Shown here: piece by piece, positions 1,434 through 64,000 of the stretch
Layout: the number at the start of each line of letters is the position of its first letter
Position numbering within the stretch: the first letter of the stretch is position 1
Assembly (NCBI GenBank): GCA_031402955.1
Contig: JANNSS010000043.1
Span: 746-64,745, forward strand
Reading direction: 5' to 3'
From: Saprospiraceae bacterium
GTDB lineage: Bacteria; Bacteroidota; Bacteroidia; Chitinophagales; Saprospiraceae
DNA: 64,000 nt
Notes under the pieces: generated by a model
What the model was told of the DNA's origin: nothing
Database searches by the model: none
What the model saw: only the letters and a program-made list of their open reading frames with translations
Position numbers and translations under genes: made by a program

Positions 1434-1617
1434 CGTGAGAACGTGAGAGCGTGAGAGCGTGAGAGAGTGAGAGAGTGAGAGAGTGAGAGAGTGAGAGAGT
1501 GAGAGCGTGAGAGGTAAGAGAGTGAGAGGTAAGAGAGTGAGAGGTAAGAGAGTGAGAGGTAAGAGAGTGAGAGGTAAGAGAGTGAGAGGCAAGAGAGTAA
1601 GAGAGAAAGACGTGAGG
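1434..1617. repeat. Compound tandem repeat: 10 NGTGAGAG octamers followed by 15-mers AGTGAGAGGTAAGAG (about 5.5 copies)
   Basis: Read directly from the sequence. It starts 1 nt after the ftsX stop, and C occurs almost only at unit heads. Confidence 0.95.
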
Positions 1618-1646
1618 CCCTAAGCACTCTATGTATCATCAACAAA

Positions 1647-1688
1647 CTGCTTACTGAAAACTGATTACTGAACACTGCTCACTGCTAA
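1647..1688. repeat. Heptamer array CTGNNNA x6
   Basis: The units are CTGCTTA CTGAAAA CTGATTA CTGAACA CTGCTCA CTGCTAA. Confidence 0.9.
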
Positions 1689-1724: not shown

Positions 1725-3143
1725 TCACTTTTCACTCTTCACTTTCATAACCTCTTCCATCACTGTTGCCAGATCTTCTCCGGCAATTTTCTTGACCAGG
1801 ATTTTTTTATCCTTGTCGAGGACAAAAATCTGAGGCGTGGTTTTTACATCGTAGATTACTTTATATCTGTTTCTCAGGTATTGGTCGGAAGCATTGACCC
1901 AAATGTCCATCCCTCTTTCTTTGATTGTACTCCAACAGGAAGAAATATCGGAACCTGTCTTGGTGCAGATCGCAAGCATTTCAACGCCTTTGTCTTTGTA
2001 GGCATTATAAAAATCGATGATAAACGGGATTGACTTTTTACAATGACCGCATTCAGGATCCCAGAAGAAGAGGACGGTATATTCAGCTTTGATGGAATGG
2101 ATAGTAATAGTTTCTCCGTTTTCCTTGTAGAAAGGCAGGTCTGGAGCAATTTTACCTATTAAAATCGGCCGAAGTGTTTCAGCTTGTGCAATGAGCTTAT
2201 CCAACTGTTCCTTGTCCATCCAGGTGGCTAGTCCTTTGGCATAATAGTGGTCCACAAGATGCACATAGGCGGCATCCATTCCCATCCGCTTTGATCGTGC
2301 GGATTCATTCAGAAAGTGTACGAGATAGTATTGAAATGCTTCAGGATTTTTATCCATTTTACTAAGCAGATAATCCATGGCGACAATCAGGCTATCCGGC
2401 AATTGATATGTCAGTTTCTGGAGATAGAAATCAATCTTCTGGTGTATCACGCCTGAACGCATCGTACGGGGATCATTCAGATCAAACTGGTCAAAATAAT
2501 GGGCCCTGAAATATTCATATTGTTTCTGCTTTCGATCAGCTTCTTCAAGGTCTTCATATGGGGGAACGTCTATTTCCTGATTGGCCCGAATCAGCATCGA
2601 TGTCATCGTTTTTGGATACTTTTTAATCTCCTCTGCCTGAATTTTGGCAACCTCTTCATCAATCACAGCCAACTCCGCCTTATAGGTGCCTGCATGGAGA
2701 GAATCTTCGCTCATCAATTTCTTCAGCTCGTCTGCACGGGGACGGCGTTCTTCAAGCTTCCGCAAATAATCGTAATAAATTTCATTTTCACTGCTCCCCT
2801 TGAATTTAGCGGATTTAACGATGTCATTCAGATCAACAGTAAGTGAGAACCGCTGCTGATCTGCTGCAACCAGCACATGCACAAACTTGTTATCCGGGGG
2901 AATCACCAGCAGATATACTCCGGGATTAAGAGGTTCATCACCTTCAAAGACAAACTTTCCCTGGTTCACCAGTGCTGTATCCTTGAGATATTGTGATTTA
3001 CCAAAATAATACCCAAGTTTAAGGGTATCCCCATCATAGTTCTGAAACTGAACCTCTATTCTGTATGCACCTTCAGGGTCGGTAGCCCATGCAGAAACGG
3101 AGAAAAGAAAATTAATAACAAACAAACTGATAATCAAGCGCAT
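1725..3143 (-). CDS. TlpA/ResA-like thiol-disulfide oxidoreductase (thioredoxin fold) with N-terminal extension
   Basis: 472 aa with a signal peptide. The C-terminal thioredoxin fold carries WDPECGHCKK (a CxxC motif). Confidence 0.8.
   Translation of the reverse strand: MRLIISLFVINFLFSVSAWATDPEGAYRIEVQFQNYDGDTLKLGYYFGKSQYLKDTALVNQGKFVFEGDEPLNPGVYLLVIPPDNKFVHVLVAADQQRFSLTVDLNDIVKSAKFKGSSENEIYYDYLRKLEERRPRADELKKLMSEDSLHAGTYKAELAVIDEEVAKIQAEEIKKYPKTMTSMLIRANQEIDVPPYEDLEEADRKQKQYEYFRAHYFDQFDLNDPRTMRSGVIHQKIDFYLQKLTYQLPDSLIVAMDYLLSKMDKNPEAFQYYLVHFLNESARSKRMGMDAAYVHLVDHYYAKGLATWMDKEQLDKLIAQAETLRPILIGKIAPDLPFYKENGETITIHSIKAEYTVLFFWDPECGHCKKSIPFIIDFYNAYKDKGVEMLAICTKTGSDISSCWSTIKERGMDIWVNASDQYLRNRYKVIYDVKTTPQIFVLDKDKKILVKKIAGEDLATVMEEVMKVKSEK
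1726..1746. repeat. Heptamer array CACTTTT CACTCTT CACTTTC, overlapping the last codons of the TlpA-like CDS
   Basis: It is the inverted twin of GTGAAAA ATGAAGA ATGAAAA at 61077. Confidence 0.8.
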
Positions 3144-15232: not shown

Positions 15233-16006
15233 TTAATCAGTCTCTTCAATAAGACCACCCCTGTCGACAACGACGGCGGCATCCTTATATCCTTTGGCTA
15301 TCACCAGATCACGGACTTTGGTGGCTTCCTTTTGGGTTTTAAATCCTCCAATCATCATGATCGTCCACTCTCCTTTGCGGTAAGACTCCAAGGGTCCATA
15401 CTGGTCAACATCACTGGTATTGAATCCACCGGGTTTGAGAAAAGAAGCAAGTCGTACTTTAAAATCTCCGGTTTCCTCGCTGGAGACAACTGGTTCTGGT
15501 GGGATTGACGCTTTAACTATCGGGGACGGAGTGACAGGAGCAGCTGTTTTTGTAATACCCTCCGGTTCGAAATCAGGCTGAATAGCCACGCCCTGTGGGG
15601 TATAGTTTTCAAGCCCTTTCTGGATGACAATAAAGGCATCCATCTTCCCTCTTTCTTTAGCCTTCAGCAGGACATTCTTTGCCTGATCCTGATTGTCATA
15701 AGGTCCGATTCTTACCTTGTACATTCCATTCTCTGTGTGGATATACACGGGCCCCAATTGTTCCCAGGAGCTAAGTGAACTCTTATCTGTAATAGGCCTG
15801 GAAGTGGCTGAAAGCTGAACTGCAAACTCCAGCTTGACAGGAACTTCCTGGCTAACCTTTTTATAGGTTGAAGGGTCCTGTTTGACATAAACCTTAACCA
15901 GGTCTGAATCAGATTTCGAGACTGTAGTCTGATAGGTCTGACTATGGCCCAGGGACAAGATTCCTGATGCAAACAGAAGTGAAATGGGTAAAAGTAGTTT
16001 CTTCAT
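15233..16006 (-). CDS. SPOR-domain protein (two SPOR repeats)
   Basis: 257 aa with a signal peptide. Two beta-alpha-beta SPOR-like modules are present (FAVQLSATS...YKVRIGPYDNQDQAKNVLLKAK and FKVRLASF...GGFKTQKEATKVRDLVIAKGY). Confidence 0.75.
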   Translation of the reverse strand: MKKLLLPISLLFASGILSLGHSQTYQTTVSKSDSDLVKVYVKQDPSTYKKVSQEVPVKLEFAVQLSATSRPITDKSSLSSWEQLGPVYIHTENGMYKVRIGPYDNQDQAKNVLLKAKERGKMDAFIVIQKGLENYTPQGVAIQPDFEPEGITKTAAPVTPSPIVKASIPPEPVVSSEETGDFKVRLASFLKPGGFNTSDVDQYGPLESYRKGEWTIMMIGGFKTQKEATKVRDLVIAKGYKDAAVVVDRGGLIEETD

Positions 16007-19232: not shown

Positions 19233-19281
19233 AAAATCCGTCAATAGTTCATTCTGTGAAGAGAAACTATTGACGGATTTT
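19233..19281. terminator. Bidirectional terminator hairpin between the convergent S8 protease and hbd genes
   Basis: Perfect 17-bp arms AAAATCCGTCAATAGTT / AACTATTGACGGATTTT, with flanking A and T runs. Confidence 0.8.
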
Positions 19282-20199: not shown

Positions 20200-20286
20200 A
20201 GGGACTAAATTAGAGAAATCCTGATTCCCAATGCAGCTTGATTGAAAGTCGAGAAGAAAATGTGATGGAAAAGAAGATAAAGCAGA

Positions 20287-21951
20287 CTACCAGCTACCGC
20301 CGCCACCGCCGCCGCTACCGCCGCCACTGAAACCACCACCGCCACCACCGCCGGATCCGCTACTGCTGGGTGCGCTGGTAAACGCAGAGCCAATACTATT
20401 GATCTCTGAAGGAAAACTCTCTGAAAATGTATTCCAGGATTGACCGAGGTAGGCTCCATGCATTCCGGGACTGCCATACCATGATGGTGGTTGGGTAAGG
20501 AGTCCTTCAAACTGATGATTCCATTGCTTGAGATAACCAAATGCCAGCGCAAAAGGCATCGTCTTGTCATAATAAAGCGGATCCTCTTTCATCAATCGCT
20601 CTATCACGGGTTTCTCGGCCTTTTTGACAAATTGTCTGAAGCCTTCGAGTTTCTGATATGTTTTATTTCCGTCAGGTGATCGCTTATTAAAACGGCTCGC
20701 AAAATAGAACAATAATAAACCAGTGGCCATCAACGCAATCCCATCCAGATTTTGTTGCGCAAAAACTGCAAACGCACCCCATCCTAAAGCACCAAGTCCA
20801 GCCAGCCCTGTCATGCATCCCATCGCTTTCTGGTCAGGCTCGTACCATCCTTGCTGCATAATCCATGCCTTTACGGATGCCTGGACACCTGACATATGCG
20901 TATGAAACTTATCCTTCAGATCAGCTAACTCAACCTGGTTTCCAGTAGCGAAAAGGGCATTAAAAAACTGCTTTTCAAATTCAAACAGCTCATTGCCCGC
21001 TTCCTTCAGTTTAAAAAAAGTGATATCACTTTTCCTGAGGAAACCTCCTTCCTTTGCTTCAAGGCGCAGATAGCCTTGATTGGCCAGATGGGGGATAAGG
21101 CATAGTACATCATTGCTATCAACACTGTGATCAACGAATCCACCAGCGATAGCCGGAGAGATTCCCTCTGGAGGAAAATACTCCGTCATGATAGTCTGGC
21201 GCCTATTCCTGGCAATATACCTGGCGAGAATCCCACCGAAAATGAAGAAGAAGGGTGCCAGCAGCAATCCATGCTTCTCAAGGAAAAATGACCAGGTGCT
21301 CATCTCTACAAAGGTGCCCTTGTCAAAATAGCATGCTACAGTCATGCCTTCTCCGGGCATCAATTTTCTAGTGACCTTTCCGTCAACGCTTCGAGACTGG
21401 ATTTGTAACTCAACATCCTGGGCTGTCGAACCTGCTGCACCGGTAGTTGCGCCCACCTTTTCCCGTGTAAGATTTACCTGCTCGGGAAAGGTCAGTCTAA
21501 AGGAAACATTTTCAATTTCGACCGGCCATTTGGTGCCCAGCAAGTCCCAGTAGAATTCAGTGTGTCCGTCCTCAAAGAAATTCAGCGGATTGACCACATG
21601 ATAATTTATCCTGTATACCTGGGTTCCTTCCACATAGGTATCAGCACTCCCTATTTTAATGAGGAGATTATAGTCCTCTTTAGACCTGGAAAACTTAAAT
21701 CCATCAACCCCGACATCTTTGATCAGCCTGTCTACCGCTTTCCCATTGATTACATCATGGTATGGTATAAATCGAAAAATACCATGTCGTTGCTCTGTAA
21801 ACCTCACCTCAATGGTTTCAACAAAATCAGCGGAACCATCGGCCGCAAAGGTTACAGCGATATCATACCGGGTAATGGTAAAATACTCTGCTTTGACCTG
21901 CGTGGCAAATAACCACAACGGCAGGATCAGCAGCAAAAGACGTTTTGTCAT
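20287..21951 (-). CDS. DUF2207 membrane protein with a Gly-rich C-terminal tail
   Basis: 554 aa with a signal peptide, an extracytoplasmic domain, TM helices and the tail SSGSGGGGGGGFSGGGSGGGGGGSW. It starts 4 nt downstream of lemA. Confidence 0.75.
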   Translation of the reverse strand: MTKRLLLLILPLWLFATQVKAEYFTITRYDIAVTFAADGSADFVETIEVRFTEQRHGIFRFIPYHDVINGKAVDRLIKDVGVDGFKFSRSKEDYNLLIKIGSADTYVEGTQVYRINYHVVNPLNFFEDGHTEFYWDLLGTKWPVEIENVSFRLTFPEQVNLTREKVGATTGAAGSTAQDVELQIQSRSVDGKVTRKLMPGEGMTVACYFDKGTFVEMSTWSFFLEKHGLLLAPFFFIFGGILARYIARNRRQTIMTEYFPPEGISPAIAGGFVDHSVDSNDVLCLIPHLANQGYLRLEAKEGGFLRKSDITFFKLKEAGNELFEFEKQFFNALFATGNQVELADLKDKFHTHMSGVQASVKAWIMQQGWYEPDQKAMGCMTGLAGLGALGWGAFAVFAQQNLDGIALMATGLLLFYFASRFNKRSPDGNKTYQKLEGFRQFVKKAEKPVIERLMKEDPLYYDKTMPFALAFGYLKQWNHQFEGLLTQPPSWYGSPGMHGAYLGQSWNTFSESFPSEINSIGSAFTSAPSSSGSGGGGGGGFSGGGSGGGGGGSW

Positions 21952-34129: not shown

Positions 34130-34162
34130 AAAAGCCATTCCGGATCACCTGGAATGGCTTTT
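34130..34162. terminator. Bidirectional terminator between the DUF4252 gene and rpoD
   Basis: 12-bp arms AAAAGCCATTCC / GGAATGGCTTTT. Confidence 0.75.
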
Positions 34163-35172: not shown

Positions 35173-35404
35173 CGTTTTTATGTCGTCCCATCCATTTATT
35201 TTCTTTTTAATGGCCTCATTTTACCATACTTGCAGATTATTTCCTGAAAGCCAGTGAAGCAAAGCGGGATGGTCTTCATGACAGAAACATAATGTCCTTA
35301 GAGGAAAAAAAGTTCAATTGTTTGTAATATTCAGGAATTCTGTTTTATTTACGCCCAACTGGATGCAGAAGACCCTCAAAAGGGCTCTCAATCAATTTAA
35401 ACTT

Positions 35405-35782
35405 ATGAAGCGAATACCTGTAGATCTCGAATATATCTTTAAAGCCTCGCCGGCGATATTGTACAAGTTTCTGACCACACCTGCATGTCTGGTGAGGTGG
35501 TTTTGTGATGGCGTTGATATCAACGGAGACGTCTACACGTTTTCCTGGGATGGCAGTGAAGAGAATGCTGAAGTGGTGGATGACATTGAGGAAGAAAGAC
35601 TTCGCTTCAAATGGGAAGGTGCTCCCCGCCATGAATACCTTGAATTTAGGATGTACCTCTCCCCTGTTACGGAAGAAACCGTTCTTGAGATTACTGACTT
35701 CGCCAATGAAAAGGAAGTTGATGACCTGAAGAGGTTATGGGATAGCCAGATTAAGAATTTACGTCAGGAAACCGGAGGATAA
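35405..35782 (+). CDS. START/AHSA1-like (SRPBCC) domain protein
   Basis: About 125 aa (IFKASPAILYKFLTTPACLVRWF...). The start is chosen at MKRIPV; the track ORF extends upstream to 35318. Confidence 0.55.
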   Translation: MKRIPVDLEYIFKASPAILYKFLTTPACLVRWFCDGVDINGDVYTFSWDGSEENAEVVDDIEEERLRFKWEGAPRHEYLEFRMYLSPVTEETVLEITDFANEKEVDDLKRLWDSQIKNLRQETGG

Positions 35783-35789
35783 CCCATAA

Positions 35790-35894
35790 GTCAGCATTCT
35801 TCAGTCAGCAGTCAGCAGTCTACAGTCAGCAGTCTACAGTCAGCAGTCAGCACTCTTCAGTCGGCAGTCTACAGCCAGAGGTACACTGTCTTCT
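35790..35894. repeat. Heptamer array, 15 units (GTCAGCA x6, GTCTACA x3 and variants)
   Basis: Strict 7-nt register, read directly from the sequence. It begins 8 nt after a stop codon. Confidence 0.95.
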
Positions 35895-35933
35895 AAAATT
35901 TAATGTGGCGAAATGAACTTCTTCGAAATACAT

Positions 35934-35961
35934 TTCACAATTCACCACTCACCACTAAAAC
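35934..35961. repeat. Heptamer array TTCACAA TTCACCA CTCACCA CTAAAAC
   Basis: It runs into the stop codon of the fnr-like gene (35955-35957). Confidence 0.8.
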
Positions 35962-36962
35962 CCATCAATCCCCGTCACTGTCGTATACTTAAACGACAAT
36001 TTCTGATCGGGATGGATATACCTGAATGCCGCCTGACACATCATGGTAGCCTCGTGAAACCCACAAAGGATTAGTTTGAGTTTTCCTGGATAAGTATTGA
36101 TATCTCCGATGGCAAAGATTCCATCCACATTCGTACTGCAATCATGAGGATCCACTACAATCGCATTCTTATCCAGTCCGAGTCCCCAATCTGAGATCGG
36201 GCCTAGCTTTGGCGTCAAACCAAATAACGGAATGAAGAAATCTGCTTCTTGAGTGATTTTTTCTTCCTTCACTTCAATGACGACAGCCTGCAGACCATCA
36301 GTCCCTATGACCTTCACTACACTGGCATCTGTGATCAACTTCACCTTGCCGTGACTCACTAACTCTAATACCTTATCAACTGAATCTGGTGCCCCTCTGA
36401 AACTGGATCTCCGATGGACAAGCGTTATCTTACTTCCAAGCGCAGCCAATTCAATCGTCCAATCCAATGCGGAATCTCCGCCTCCTGCGATCACTACATT
36501 TTTGTCTTTATAATGGATAGGGTTTTTGACAAAATAGTCAACCCCATTACCTTCAAATTTTTCAATTCCATCAATCGGCGGTTTACGTGGCTCAAAACAG
36601 CCTAATCCTCCTGCGATGGCGATCACCCCTGATTCGATGACAGTACCGTCATGGCCGGTTGTTCTGAACGAACCATCTTCCAGTTTTTCAATCTTTTGAG
36701 CTATTTCACCCAGGGTGAAGGTTGGCTTAAAGGGCTCTATTTGTTTCCTGAGATTGTCTACCAGGTCACTGGCCAGGATCATCGGGCACCCGGGAATATC
36801 GTATATGGGCTTTTTCGGATAGATTTCTGTCAGTTGTCCTCCAACCTGAGGAAGGACATCGATCAGATGGCATCTCATCTTCAGTAAACCCGCTTCAAAA
36901 ACTGCAAAAAGCCCAACAGGCCCCGCACCTATGATCAGTATATCTGTTTTTATCACCCCCAT
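35955..36962 (-). CDS. Thioredoxin-reductase-like ferredoxin-NADP+ reductase
   Basis: 335 aa with DILIIGAGPVGLFA, GGGDSALDW and no CxxC redox-active pair, which is the YumC-type pattern. Confidence 0.8.
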   Translation of the reverse strand: MGVIKTDILIIGAGPVGLFAVFEAGLLKMRCHLIDVLPQVGGQLTEIYPKKPIYDIPGCPMILASDLVDNLRKQIEPFKPTFTLGEIAQKIEKLEDGSFRTTGHDGTVIESGVIAIAGGLGCFEPRKPPIDGIEKFEGNGVDYFVKNPIHYKDKNVVIAGGGDSALDWTIELAALGSKITLVHRRSSFRGAPDSVDKVLELVSHGKVKLITDASVVKVIGTDGLQAVVIEVKEEKITQEADFFIPLFGLTPKLGPISDWGLGLDKNAIVVDPHDCSTNVDGIFAIGDINTYPGKLKLILCGFHEATMMCQAAFRYIHPDQKLSFKYTTVTGIDGF

Positions 36963-39544: not shown

Positions 39545-39619
39545 GGTGGCTATAGCTCAGTAGGTTAGAGCGCTAGATTGTGGTTCTGGAGGTCGTGGGT
39601 TCGAGACCCTCTAGCCACC
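39545..39619 (+). tRNA. tRNA-His (anticodon GTG) with an encoded G-1
   Basis: It folds as a cloverleaf: G-1 plus acceptor GTGGCTA/TAGCCAC, D arm GCTC...GAGC, anticodon stem CTAGA/TCTGG with loop TTGTGGT, and T loop TTCGAGA. There is one U-U mismatch in the T stem and no encoded CCA. Confidence 0.85.
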
Positions 39620-39626
39620 CTTCCTT

Positions 39627-39660
39627 AAAAGCCTGTTTACCATGGTAGACAGGCTTTTTT
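39627..39660. terminator. Terminator after tRNA-His, shared with the convergent folC
   Basis: Arms AAAAGCCTGT...ACAGGCTTTT followed by a T6 run. The T-tract overlaps the folC stop codon. Confidence 0.8.
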
Positions 39661-61076: not shown

Positions 61077-61104
61077 GTGAAAAATGAAGAATGAAAAGTA
61101 AAAA
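61077..61104. repeat. Heptamer array GTGAAAA ATGAAGA ATGAAAA GTAAAAA
   Basis: It starts 3 nt after the stop of the SpeA-like gene. Confidence 0.85.
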
Positions 61105-61183
61105 ATGCGTTTTCATTACTTAAGGTTCATGCCTCACAAATTTGAATTCACAATCCAAGCTTCGACTCCGCTCAGGACAAGCA

Positions 61184-61218
61184 ACACTGACAACTCACAA
61201 TTCACAACTGACAAAAAA
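61184..61218. repeat. Heptamer array ACACTGA CAACTCA CAATTCA CAACTGA CAAAAAA, abutting the ATG of the DHS-like gene
   Basis: Read directly from the sequence. The segment CACAATTCAC is shared with 35936-35945. Confidence 0.85.
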
Positions 61219-62201: not shown

Positions 62202-62227
62202 GGCTTAGGGGCTTAGGAGCTTAGAAG
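62202..62227. repeat. Octamer array GGCTTAGG GGCTTAGG AGCTTAGA AG
   Basis: It starts 10 nt after the stop of the DHS-like gene. Confidence 0.85.
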
Positions 62228-62511
62228 TTTAAATGATCTAAGAGGGATAAAAGGAGCAAAGGATGAATGGAGCAAGAGGATAGTTAAACTGCGGCTATGT
62301 GACTCCTGCTACAAACGATAACTCTTTTGGTGGAATCTTCGATCTCCGTAAAAAGAAATATGGGGGATTCAAACCCTTAAATTCTTAAGAGGCGACATGA
62401 AGGAGAAAAGTGAACAAAGGGAAAATTTAACTGCGCCTCTGCGTCTCTGCGCGAAAATAAATACGGAGAACTTTAATACTTTAGTACTCATTGCGGGAGT
62501 AAACTCAGCAA

Positions 62512-63254: not shown

Positions 63255-63330
<76 letters not shown>

Positions 63331-63333
63331 CAA

Positions 63334-63361
63334 AAAAGCCCTGGATTTCTCCGGGGCTTTT
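63334..63361. terminator. Terminator after tRNA-Gly, shared with the convergent lpxH-like gene
   Basis: Arms AAAAGCCCTGG-ATTTCT-CCGGGGCTTTT (one G-U pair) followed by a T-rich run. Confidence 0.8.
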
Positions 63362-63377
63362 TCTTTTTTACTTTCCT

Positions 63378-64000
63378 TTATTCTCTTTCTTTTTCCAGTT
63401 TAGAATGTGGAAATATGTACTGATCATCTTCCAACTTGGTCAGGATTTCTTCCAGTCCTGGATCTTCATGGACGCCATATCTAAATAACTTCCAGTGCCC
63501 ATTGAGATACTCAAGGGATGTCATATTTTCTACCCAGTCACCTGAATTCATATACATAATGCTACCCTCTTCACTGGTGACCTGTTCGATGCAGGGTTGG
63601 TGGATATGACCGCAAATGACCACATCTACTCCCTTTTTCAGACCCATACGGATTGATTGTTTTTCAAAATCGCTCACAAACTTCACAGCGTGCTTTACGG
63701 ATCTCTTCACCCGGTGTGCAAAGGAAATCCTGGACATGCCGAAACTAACCCTCCAGCGATTGATCCATGCATTGATACGGATAAGCCAATCATAGCCCTT
63801 TCCACCTAATGAAGCGAGAAAAGGGGAAATCAGCACACTGGCATCGAAGACGTCTCCGTGAAAGAACCAATGGGTCTTGTTCTGAATCCTCAACTCCAGC
63901 TGGTGTCTCAATCGGATATTACCCAAATCCAGAGCATTAAATCGCCGGAGTATGTCATCATGATTACCCGTAAGGTAGTAGACAATGGTTCCGGAATTGG
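63378..64000 (-). CDS. lpxH: LpxH-like metallophosphoesterase (UDP-2,3-diacylglucosamine diphosphatase family); the 5' end is off the window
   Basis: The frame stays open to the window edge upstream of the track start. It translates as ...VYYLTGNHDDILRRF... plus FHGDVFD and CGHIHQP, which are calcineurin-like motifs. Confidence 0.7.
   Translation of the reverse strand, partial: NSGTIVYYLTGNHDDILRRFNALDLGNIRLRHQLELRIQNKTHWFFHGDVFDASVLISPFLASLGGKGYDWLIRINAWINRWRVSFGMSRISFAHRVKRSVKHAVKFVSDFEKQSIRMGLKKGVDVVICGHIHQPCIEQVTSEEGSIMYMNSGDWVENMTSLEYLNGHWKLFRYGVHEDPGLEEILTKLEDDQYIFPHSKLEKERE

Follow-up and report, generated by a model that had tools for sequence, protein, structure and literature searches.

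Tandem heptamer arrays at a convergent gene junction of a Saprospiraceae bacterium: fast-changing intergenic repeats of an already described kind

Heptamer repeats in intergenic DNA have been known for decades from cyanobacteria, Xanthomonas, Beggiatoaceae, and a few Bacteroidetes, and no function has been accepted for them. Two arrays of tandem heptamers (arrays 1 and 2) were noticed between two convergent genes of a Saprospiraceae bacterium, in a stretch of 64,000 nucleotides (GenBank assembly GCA_031402955.1, contig JANNSS010000043.1, positions 746–64,745 of the forward strand). The whole of this stretch is called the window here, and positions are counted from its first letter. The two genes encode a START_2 protein and a protein of the thioredoxin-reductase-like ferredoxin-NADP reductase type (FNR-like), and 172 nt lie between them in the window (35783–35954; Table 1). 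The locus raises the question of whether such arrays perform a function at the ends of genes or are the debris of replication slippage.

Array 1 began 7 nt after the stop codon TAA of the START_2 gene. It was composed of six copies of GTCAGCA (ACTGCTG on the minus strand), three copies of GTCTACA, and single copies of TTCTTCA, CTCTTCA, GTCGGCA, GCCAGAG, GTACACT, and GTCTTCT. This list of 15 units had been given in a preliminary description of the window, and it was exact when the sequence was read again. Tandem Repeats Finder (TRF) reported array 1 at 35789–35869 with a period of 7 and 11.6 copies, and also with a higher-order period of 35 nt, at scores of 85 and 138. The contiguous, head-to-tail units of 7 nt make array 1 a long simple sequence repeat (LSSR; units of 5–11 nt). 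Over the first 12 units, positions 2, 3, 6, and 7 were invariant and positions 1, 4, and 5 were variable. Array 2 ran into the end of the FNR-like gene, as had been described, and the stop codon TAG of this gene (35955–35957, minus strand) sat within CTAAAAC, the last unit; TRF reported only 35942–35956 of the array. On the plus strand, array 1 contained 30% C and 22% G with 17 pyrimidine-cytosine (YC) dimers, and array 2 at 35934–35954 contained 0% G, the sense strand of the FNR-like gene being G-rich there.

Two metagenome contigs, from runs SRR20217205 and SRR20217196, encoded an FNR-like protein identical to that of the window. When these contigs (L001 and L002) were compared with the window over 4.9 kb, no substitution was found, and all of the 21 gap columns were located in arrays 1 and 2. 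In the contigs, array 1 had two units fewer (−14 nt) and one GTCTACA changed to GTCGGCA, and array 2 had one additional CACCACT unit (+7 nt). Therefore, the arrays gain, lose, and swap whole units far faster than their flanks accumulate substitutions. The copy-number variation predicted in the preliminary description was thus found between alleles that are otherwise identical, and such polymorphism of unit number is the slippage behavior of an LSSR. Higher-order periods of 35 nt and 21 nt in the arrays indicate multi-unit duplication as well. An exact look-up of the START_2 protein gave no further alleles of the two arrays, and an exact look-up of the deoxyhypusine-synthase-like protein, encoded further along the window, gave no record.

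Three simple readings of the arrays were excluded. An assembly artefact was ruled out, because the arrays of the window were also present in two separate metagenome assemblies. A clustered regularly interspaced short palindromic repeat (CRISPR) array was ruled out by the contiguous 7-nt units without spacers, whereas CRISPR repeats are 24–48 nt long with unique spacers. A coding reading was ruled out by the period of 7, by the location of the arrays past stop codons, and by the strain indels of 7 and 14 nt, which would break a reading frame; the earlier statement that a period of 7 is incompatible with coding was thereby upheld.

The difference in unit number between otherwise identical strains is also consistent with a contingency locus, in which the number of units would switch or tune a neighboring gene as in phase variation by simple sequence repeats (SSRs). 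Such a role is extremely improbable for these arrays, because they are flanked by two 3′ ends, whereas phase variation would require them in a promoter or a 5′ coding region. In addition, START_2 and FNR-like genes are of the housekeeping type rather than surface or restriction genes, promoter-bearing divergent spacers are depleted of arrays, and the same negative conclusion was reached for Xanthomonas and Nostoc (PMC4692102).

Among genomes, uncultured Saprospiraceae best matched the FNR-like protein, with identities of 81, 76, and 68%, the first being the highest identity among orthologues within the family. The orthologous FNR/START junction of these relatives had spacers of 17, 8, and −4 nt, respectively, and was free of arrays. 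In other Saprospiraceae, a ferredoxin-like gene followed the FNR-like gene instead. This junction contained at most 18 nt in some genomes, with overlapping genes in two loci, and contained unrelated units in others, namely ATATGAA/TTCATAT (locus L023), TTTGAAAA (L009), and GGGTGAG and CACTAAA (L018). Orthologous junctions that are array-free or contain unrelated units show that the arrays are of recent origin, have arisen repeatedly, independently, and locally, and are short-lived at the genus scale.

The arrays are probably slippage-born repeats of the LSSR type, or of the type of the short tandemly repeated repetitive (STRR) sequences of cyanobacteria, which are tolerated in promoter-free spacers in one orientation and which serve as filler of the 3′ untranslated regions (3′-UTRs) at this junction. 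The two arrays would have arisen recently within a convergent junction of at most ~17 nt, and since their changes are whole-unit changes, units were presumably gained and lost by replication slippage or unequal exchange. The junction would have been expanded about ten-fold to its present length by material that is most likely 3′-UTR filler and needs no dedicated function, and any effect of the two arrays on termination would be a by-product.

The class to which the arrays belong was examined in a sample of the window and 80 loci fetched around FNR-like orthologues (1.376 Mb in total, 163 kb intergenic), in which genes were called as crude longest open reading frames (ORFs) by greedy selection. 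Numbers of TRF arrays were compared with those in ten dinucleotide-preserving shuffles of the intergenic segments. At period 7, 66 arrays had a score of at least 30 (shuffle mean 8.1) and 33 arrays had a score of at least 40 (0.6). The corresponding numbers were 42 (10.4) and 12 (0.3) at period 8, 19 (1.2) and 16 (1.0) at period 14, and 12 (0.8) and 12 (0.8) at period 16. At periods 5, 6, and 9–12, the counts in the 163 kb of intergenic DNA were close to the shuffle null. Because the excess over the shuffles was found at periods 7 and 8 while periods 5, 6, and 9–12 were near the null, the array class is real and specific to 7- and 8-nt units.

Per kb of intergenic DNA, strong period-7/14 arrays numbered 0.43 in the window, 0.31 in Saprospiraceae and Lewinellaceae, 0.95 in Flavobacterium, 0.21 in other Flavobacteriales, and 0 in Cytophagales and relatives. 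At least one strong period-7/8 array was present in 13 of 34, 7 of 7, 6 of 21, and 0 of 6 loci of the last four groups, respectively. In an exact scan for GTCAGCAGTCAGCAGTC, (GTCAGCA)n arrays were found in at least 120 metagenome contigs (L085–L204) with G+C contents of 35–72%, and these arrays reached 225 nt, or ~30 units. This spread of G+C indicates that the GTCAGCA unit forms arrays in unrelated organisms. The class is thus shown to be patchy but widespread in Bacteroidota and other phyla, and the earlier view of a lineage-specific repeat could not be kept, since the arrays are denser in Flavobacterium than in the family of the window and the GTCAGCA unit spans such different genomes. The idea of a conserved unit head with a drifting tail did not prove general either: in 127 (GTCAGCA)n arrays, the identity was 0.62–0.81 at every unit position, and no position was specially conserved. 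Among the matches listed for contigs of at most 55% G+C, GTCAGCA was the sense strand after a stop codon in 13 cases versus 4, and it has the same orientation in the window.

The arrays studied here are an already described kind of bacterial microsatellite and not a new Bacteroidota-specific element. The preliminary description knew of no equivalent in Bacteroidota, whereas MacGregor (2015; PMC4679880) reported TAACTGA heptamer direct repeats in Beggiatoaceae, Cyanobacteria, and five Bacteroidetes (Flexibacter litoralis, Gramella forsetii, Aequorivita, Paludibacter, and Elizabethkingia). Further heptamer repeats were present in the TAACTGA spacers, and contigs broke within the repeats (PMC4679880). 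The TAACTGA family resembles the arrays of the window in being intergenic tandem heptamers near start or stop codons in Bacteroidetes. One set of F. litoralis lies just past a stop codon in the reverse orientation (TCAGTTA), as GTCAGCA does in the window, and the array at 1646–1684 of the window (TTACTGA AAACTGA ...) is one mismatch away from TAACTGA. However, no exact TAACTGA doublet was seen in this array or in array 1, which places both outside the TAACTGA family. MacGregor described one unit and favored its horizontal spread and the binding of a regulator upstream of start codons, whereas the window contains many units, and its target arrays lie between two 3′ ends. Unlike that account, the present data favor repeated local origin.

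Similar behavior is described for the intergenic heptamers GGGAATC of Xanthomonas and GGGGAYT of Nostoc (Rehm 2015; PMC4692102). These repeats are strongly intergenic with a 7-nt unit, are placed 0–50 bp from gene ends, and obey a strand rule in which the G-rich strand is the coding strand after stop codons and the non-coding strand before start codons. Few of them lie between divergent genes, some form inverted pairs, their length and sequence vary between close relatives, and no function was identified (PMC4692102). They differ from the units of the window (GTCAGCA, TTCACCA, and GTGAGAGn), which lack G-tracts, in having G-tracts capable of forming G-quadruplexes, and they belong to other phyla. 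Furthermore, most of them have the same flanking genes in two Xanthomonas species, whereas the target array is absent from the orthologous junction of the nearest available relatives. In both of the earlier studies, relatives keep the gene neighbors with shorter, repeat-free spacers (PMC4679880, PMC4692102).

The STRR sequences of heterocystous cyanobacteria are also non-coding tandem heptanucleotides; they are dispersed over many loci, and each genome has a few families of related units. The same features were found in the window, where non-coding period-7 or period-8 arrays occupied five spacers and two unit families were common to several loci. The host is a member of the Saprospiraceae (Bacteroidota) rather than a heterocystous cyanobacterium, the units appear to differ from those of STRR1–3, and the window shows a greater diversity of units and contains period-8 arrays in addition. 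CAACAGT, which we take to be an STRR unit, has one mismatch to CAGCAGT, a rotation of GTCAGCA. Three tandem heptanucleotides in Calothrix PCC 7601 are among the precedents cited in PMC4692102. A survey of 2007 by Mrazek and co-workers, as cited in PMC4679880 and PMC4692102, found heptamers to be the most over-represented SSRs and proposed polymerase slippage. The LSSRs of prokaryotes, as cited from it, share with the present arrays units of 5–11 nt, lengths beyond chance, an abundance led by heptamers, and a patchy phylogeny; they are a general class defined by statistics, to which no mechanism is assigned. No Bacteroidota are included among the genomes richest in 5–11-nt repeats as these are listed from the survey in PMC4679880.

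Rules of placement and strand were drawn from the window and the related loci, and the counts by spacer type used all spacers of 40–600 nt in the window and loci L003–L082. The arrays hugged the edges of spacers, with a median relative position of 0.10 against an expected 0.5 (Kolmogorov–Smirnov p = 1e-21). Only 3 of 138 divergent spacers contained arrays, compared with 49 of 427 tandem spacers and 9 of 96 convergent ones (58/523 together; Fisher p = 4.5e-4). Of the 43 arrays within 25 nt after a stop codon (A 39, C 10, G 25, and T 27%), 34 had more G than C on the sense strand; of the 42 arrays within 25 nt before a start codon (A 44, C 24, G 6, and T 26%), 39 had more C than G. In addition, 81% of the pre-start arrays contained no ATG, GTG, or TTG on the sense strand, compared with 26% on the antisense strand. 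Array-free spacers showed almost no skew (G−C of −0.036 and −0.005). The strand rule was robust to the bias that arises when NTG-containing arrays are absorbed by the ORF caller, as only 9 arrays lay in called N-termini and the result was unchanged. A bias between replication strands was rejected as the source of the rule, as the skew is reversed from one end of a spacer to the other. Placement, strand rule, and depletion from divergent spacers extend the published pattern to Bacteroidota and do not constitute a new one.

Under the slippage reading, there would be no restriction on where an array arises, and its survival would depend on selection acting on the RNA transcribed from it. Survival would be possible in promoter-free spacers beside the 3′ end of a gene. 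Before a start codon, the retained orientation would be the one that gives a G-free, start-codon-free, and unstructured leader RNA, and after a stop codon, the one that gives a C-poor and stop-rich trailer RNA. Translation initiation in Bacteroidota is not known to rely on Shine-Dalgarno pairing, and the composition of the leader RNA should therefore matter in this phylum.

A first functional alternative is that the arrays, alone or with their flanks, fold into a hairpin that terminates or stabilizes the convergent transcripts. Inverted arrays in the related loci favor it: about 10 of 25 pairs of arrays in the same spacer were inverted complements beyond all of 100 shuffles. Pairs of this kind were located at 2176–2263 of L023, 7708–7805 of L036, 4749–4877 and 9768–9973 of L018, 16431–16503 of L052, and 5506–5648 of L009, with the G-rich arm after the stop codon and the C-rich arm up to the next start codon, so that a single long hairpin built of repeats could form across the entire spacer. 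Locus L018 (Lewinellaceae) also contained a perfect (GAGGAAT) array of 18.9 copies at 15395–15526, starting from a stop codon, in which each unit has a TGA and a Shine-Dalgarno-like GAGG; a degenerate complementary CTCATCC array was found 64 nt past it, at the stop codon of the convergent gene.

At the target spacer, however, the folding alternative is very improbable. No complementary pair was found among the window pairs scored; the pair of arrays at 35790 and 35934 was below the score cut-off, and by eye GTCAGCA is not complementary to TTCACCA or CTCACCA. The plus-strand RNA of the spacer folded worse than its own shuffles (z = +0.85), and the fold of the minus-strand RNA was not significant (z = −1.6). 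A weak AU-rich hairpin between the two arrays (~35908–35938), best formed in the minus-strand RNA, gives the alternative some support. The best 45-nt hairpin in the spacer had −10.4 kcal/mol, compared with about −21 kcal/mol at 19236 and 34130, and the spacer had no intrinsic terminator with a G+C-rich stem-loop and a U run. A scan for consensus promoters and terminators gave nothing inside 35783–35954, and an Rfam scan of the whole window gave two tRNAs only and no structured-RNA family at the arrays. A palindromic terminator-like hairpin (TGTCGTATACTTAAACGACA then ATTTCTGATC) was observed at 35979–35998, within the coding sequence of the FNR-like gene at its 3′ end and on the strand of the oncoming START transcript.

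Near-perfect 14-bp hairpins at 19236–19278 and 34130–34162 (~−21 kcal/mol) lie at convergent junctions without arrays and look like bidirectional intrinsic terminators. Hairpin terminators had been named earlier at four convergent junctions of the window; these two are real, and the other two, at 39627 and 63334, lie directly after tRNA genes on the plus strand (39546–39619 and 63255–63327). The accompanying proposal that arrays stand where other convergent junctions have hairpins was borne out in the sample, in which a strong hairpin outside the arrays was present in 11% of the array-bearing convergent spacers (n = 9) and in 51% of the array-free ones.

This scarcity of hairpins is also a point in favor of Rho loading, which ranks as the main rival to slippage and filler, although it is unlikely. 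The arrays would act as Rho utilization (rut) pads by giving unstructured, C-rich, G-poor RNA with regular YC dimers toward genes, and Rho would stop untranslated read-through or antisense transcription there. For the target spacer, the corresponding claim, which we likewise regard as unlikely, is that the START transcript is ended before the antisense of the FNR-like gene or within it. The plus-strand RNA of 35783–35954 resembles a rut site in being less structured than its shuffles and richer in C than in G (28% and 17%), with regularly spaced YC dimers (26, versus 7 on the minus strand, where G exceeds C). The 78-nt window of this strand with the strongest excess of C over G overlies array 2. 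The minus strand of the array at 1434–1617 contains 47% C and 4% G with 59 YC dimers, and the strand rule implies that a transcript running into a gene, at the 5′ or the 3′ end, contains the array in its C-rich form.

The rut composition suggested in the preliminary description was approached moderately on the plus strand of the target spacer and was extreme on the minus strand of 1434–1617, but it was not general, as arrays directly after a gene are C-poor on the RNA of that gene (10% C and 25% G, with G above C in 34/43). The G content of 17–22% at the target, and that of array 1 in particular (22%), is high for a rut site. C-rich arrays lie within 25 nt, and often 2–15 nt, before co-directional start codons, where termination would be polar. 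Close relatives manage the same junction with at most 17 nt and no array. The array-bearing convergent spacers number only 9, and their non-array sequence is shorter, which limits the comparison of hairpins. To our knowledge, cyanobacteria have no Rho, and this counts against the rut reading together with the strand rule outside Bacteroidota. Nostoc obeys the same rule (PMC4692102). If Rho acts at all, it is possible that it would act on the oncoming and not on the proximal transcript.

A further alternative is a periodic binding platform, in which each heptamer is one site for a protein that binds single-stranded nucleic acid or for one subunit of an oligomer, and which tunes RNA stability, antitermination, or translation. 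This alternative is very unlikely, and so is each candidate binder, whether a protein with a cold-shock domain, ribosomal protein S1, or a ring protein that, like HutP or TRAP, recognizes spaced short motifs. It agrees with the four invariant positions in the first 12 units of array 1 and, in our estimate, a period of 7 nt suits single-strand binding over the DNA helical repeat. The units GTCTTCT, TTCTTCA, and CTCTTCA are similar to the heptamer consensus GTCTTTG/T given for CspB in PMC1904285, and binding of S1, cold-shock protein (Csp), or CsrA, with one Csp per heptamer, was raised for the TAACTGA repeats (PMC4679880). On the other hand, chance alone would restrict the variation within array 1 to three positions in about one case in five (a rough estimate), none of the positions stood out in the 127 (GTCAGCA)n arrays, the units are wholly different between arrays and genomes, and the relatives have no arrays at the orthologous junction. 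Pre-start arrays are A-rich and post-stop arrays are purine-rich, whereas CspB prefers pyrimidine-rich ligands. Binding of cold-shock proteins as a general reading was rejected, because the composition of the class does not fit it.

A wider proposal, which is quite unlikely, takes the strand rule as a cross-phylum signal of gene boundaries: heptamer and octamer arrays would be retained so that the first RNA made by any polymerase on its way into a gene is G-poor, C/A-rich, and unstructured. With similarly low probability, this RNA would be a periodic loading pad for Rho, in organisms that have it, or for S1 or a cold-shock protein, upon sense entry at the 5′ end and upon antisense entry at the 3′ end. 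The loaded factor might, at comparably long odds, couple transcription with translation at start codons and silence antisense or convergent read-through at 3′ ends. The inverted array pairs could then, just as tentatively, be the two faces of one boundary. If the proposal were true, the pads could be a main determinant of start-site use, given that Bacteroidota are not known to rely on Shine-Dalgarno sequences.

Several observations weigh against the preferred reading of slippage-born, tolerated repeats. The sharp preference for 7- and 8-nt units goes beyond slippage alone. The strand rule is far stronger than the background skew of array-free spacers, and this strength hints at more than passive tolerance. 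The inverted complements among same-spacer pairs suggest selection or a mechanism for pairing. The arrays at 1646–1684 and 35802–35847 share two 6-nt unit variants, ACTGCTn and ACTGAAn (array 1 on the minus strand), and unit families are thus reused between loci, which would not be expected from slippage that is purely local. The composition of array 1 is neutral, with C above G, and breaks the post-stop rule. Finally, the gene calls on which the rules for the related loci depend are crude longest-ORF calls.

The remaining arrays of the window are collected in Table 1 with the target spacer. Period-7 or period-8 arrays were present in five spacers, the target spacer included.

Table 1. Genes and repeat arrays of the target spacer and of the rest of the window
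Feature	Position	Strand	Evidence and remarks
Period-8/15 array (GTGAGAGn; GTGAGAGGTAAGAGA)	1434–1617		TRF 1435–1605, scores 230 and 209; directly follows FtsX-like stop
Heptamer array ACTGCTT ACTGAAA ACTGATT ACTGAAC ACTGCTC ACTGCTA	1644–1688	+	TRF 1644–1684, period 7/14
Three TCACnnn heptamers (plus strand) coding for the last 7 codons, MKVKSEK*	1725–1746	−	Pattern search and translation
START_2/AHSA1-like gene	35318–35782	+	ORF list; Pfam PF19569, E = 3.8e-28
Array 1, 15 tandem heptamers, core GTCAGCA	35790–35894		Sequence and TRF; unit number polymorphic
Unique A/T-rich mid-spacer	35895–35933		Makes up most of the weak AU-rich hairpin
Array 2, TTCACAA TTCACCA CTCACCA and degenerate CTAAAAC	35934–35961		Sequence; polymorphic
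Pyr_redox_2 gene, FNR-like	35955–36962	−	Pfam PF07992, E = 9.6e-27
Short purine-rich heptamer array, TGAAAAA type, no C	61077–61104	+	TRF 61078–61107, score 39; directly after arginine/ornithine decarboxylase-like stop
Short CA-rich, G-poor array ACTGACA ACTCACA ATTCACA	61184–61217	+	TRF 61186–61214, score 37; ends at deoxyhypusine-synthase-like ATG
Two purine-rich period-8 arrays (GGCTTAGG; AAGAGGATAAAAGGAGC)	62202–62282	+	TRF, including 62202–62224; after deoxyhypusine-synthase-like stop

The preliminary description had listed further arrays in the window, and those at 1434, 1644, 61078, 61186, and 62202 were confirmed by TRF, although the arrays at 61078 and 61186 are individually weak (scores 37–39). 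The heptamers at 1725–1746 are coding and do not belong to a spacer. They encode the C-terminus of a thioredoxin-like protein (1725–3143, minus strand), and an array seems to have been recruited into this coding end or to have grown out of it. The arrays had also been said to abut a stop or start codon in every case, but 1644–1688, 62240–62282, and 62431–62452 touch no codon. The pattern ACTGnnnACTGnnnACTG had 9 matches in the window against 0.00 expected, all within the array at 1644–1688 and array 1. In a pattern search, the TCACnnn unit was common to the arrays at 1725, 35935, and 61188, the last of which contains 6% G. A non-coding, STRR-like heptamer class that recurs across the window was thus upheld, by TRF and by unit families common to several loci.

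A few observations concern single repeats. A metagenome contig with an identical FtsX-like gene (L084, SRR20217205_11862065) ended 28 nt into the array at 1434–1617, an assembly break like those described for heptamer repeats in PMC4679880. A 92-aa ORF at 1397–1675 on the minus strand was a spurious product of this array, which is open in one frame, and it was removed from the gene set. A CCG/CCGCCGCCACCG repeat with a period of 3, 9, or 12 was located at 20296–20352, in the overlap of the minus-strand ORFs 20205–20570 and 20287–21951, and is probably a Gly- or Pro-rich coding repeat separate from the heptamer class. A CT-rich repeat of the CTTTTT type at 63357–63395 was 95% pyrimidine on the plus strand and overlapped the stop end of the minus-strand ORF 63378–63926.

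The target locus is ordinary for its class, and the class itself is an old open question. In practice, arrays of this kind break short-read assemblies, generate spurious ORFs, and offer markers for strain typing. The survey found them to be common in Saprospiraceae and more so in Flavobacterium, with the same strand and placement rule as in two other phyla and with avoidance of promoter-bearing spacers. The target locus provides a clean natural experiment, as relatives share the convergent junction with or without arrays in it, and strains that match fully elsewhere over 4.9 kb have different numbers of units. Flavobacterium is a genus with genetic tools. The comparison of junctions with and without arrays, the polymorphism between strains, and the abundance of arrays in Flavobacterium together make the question of function versus slippage debris testable in a tractable host.

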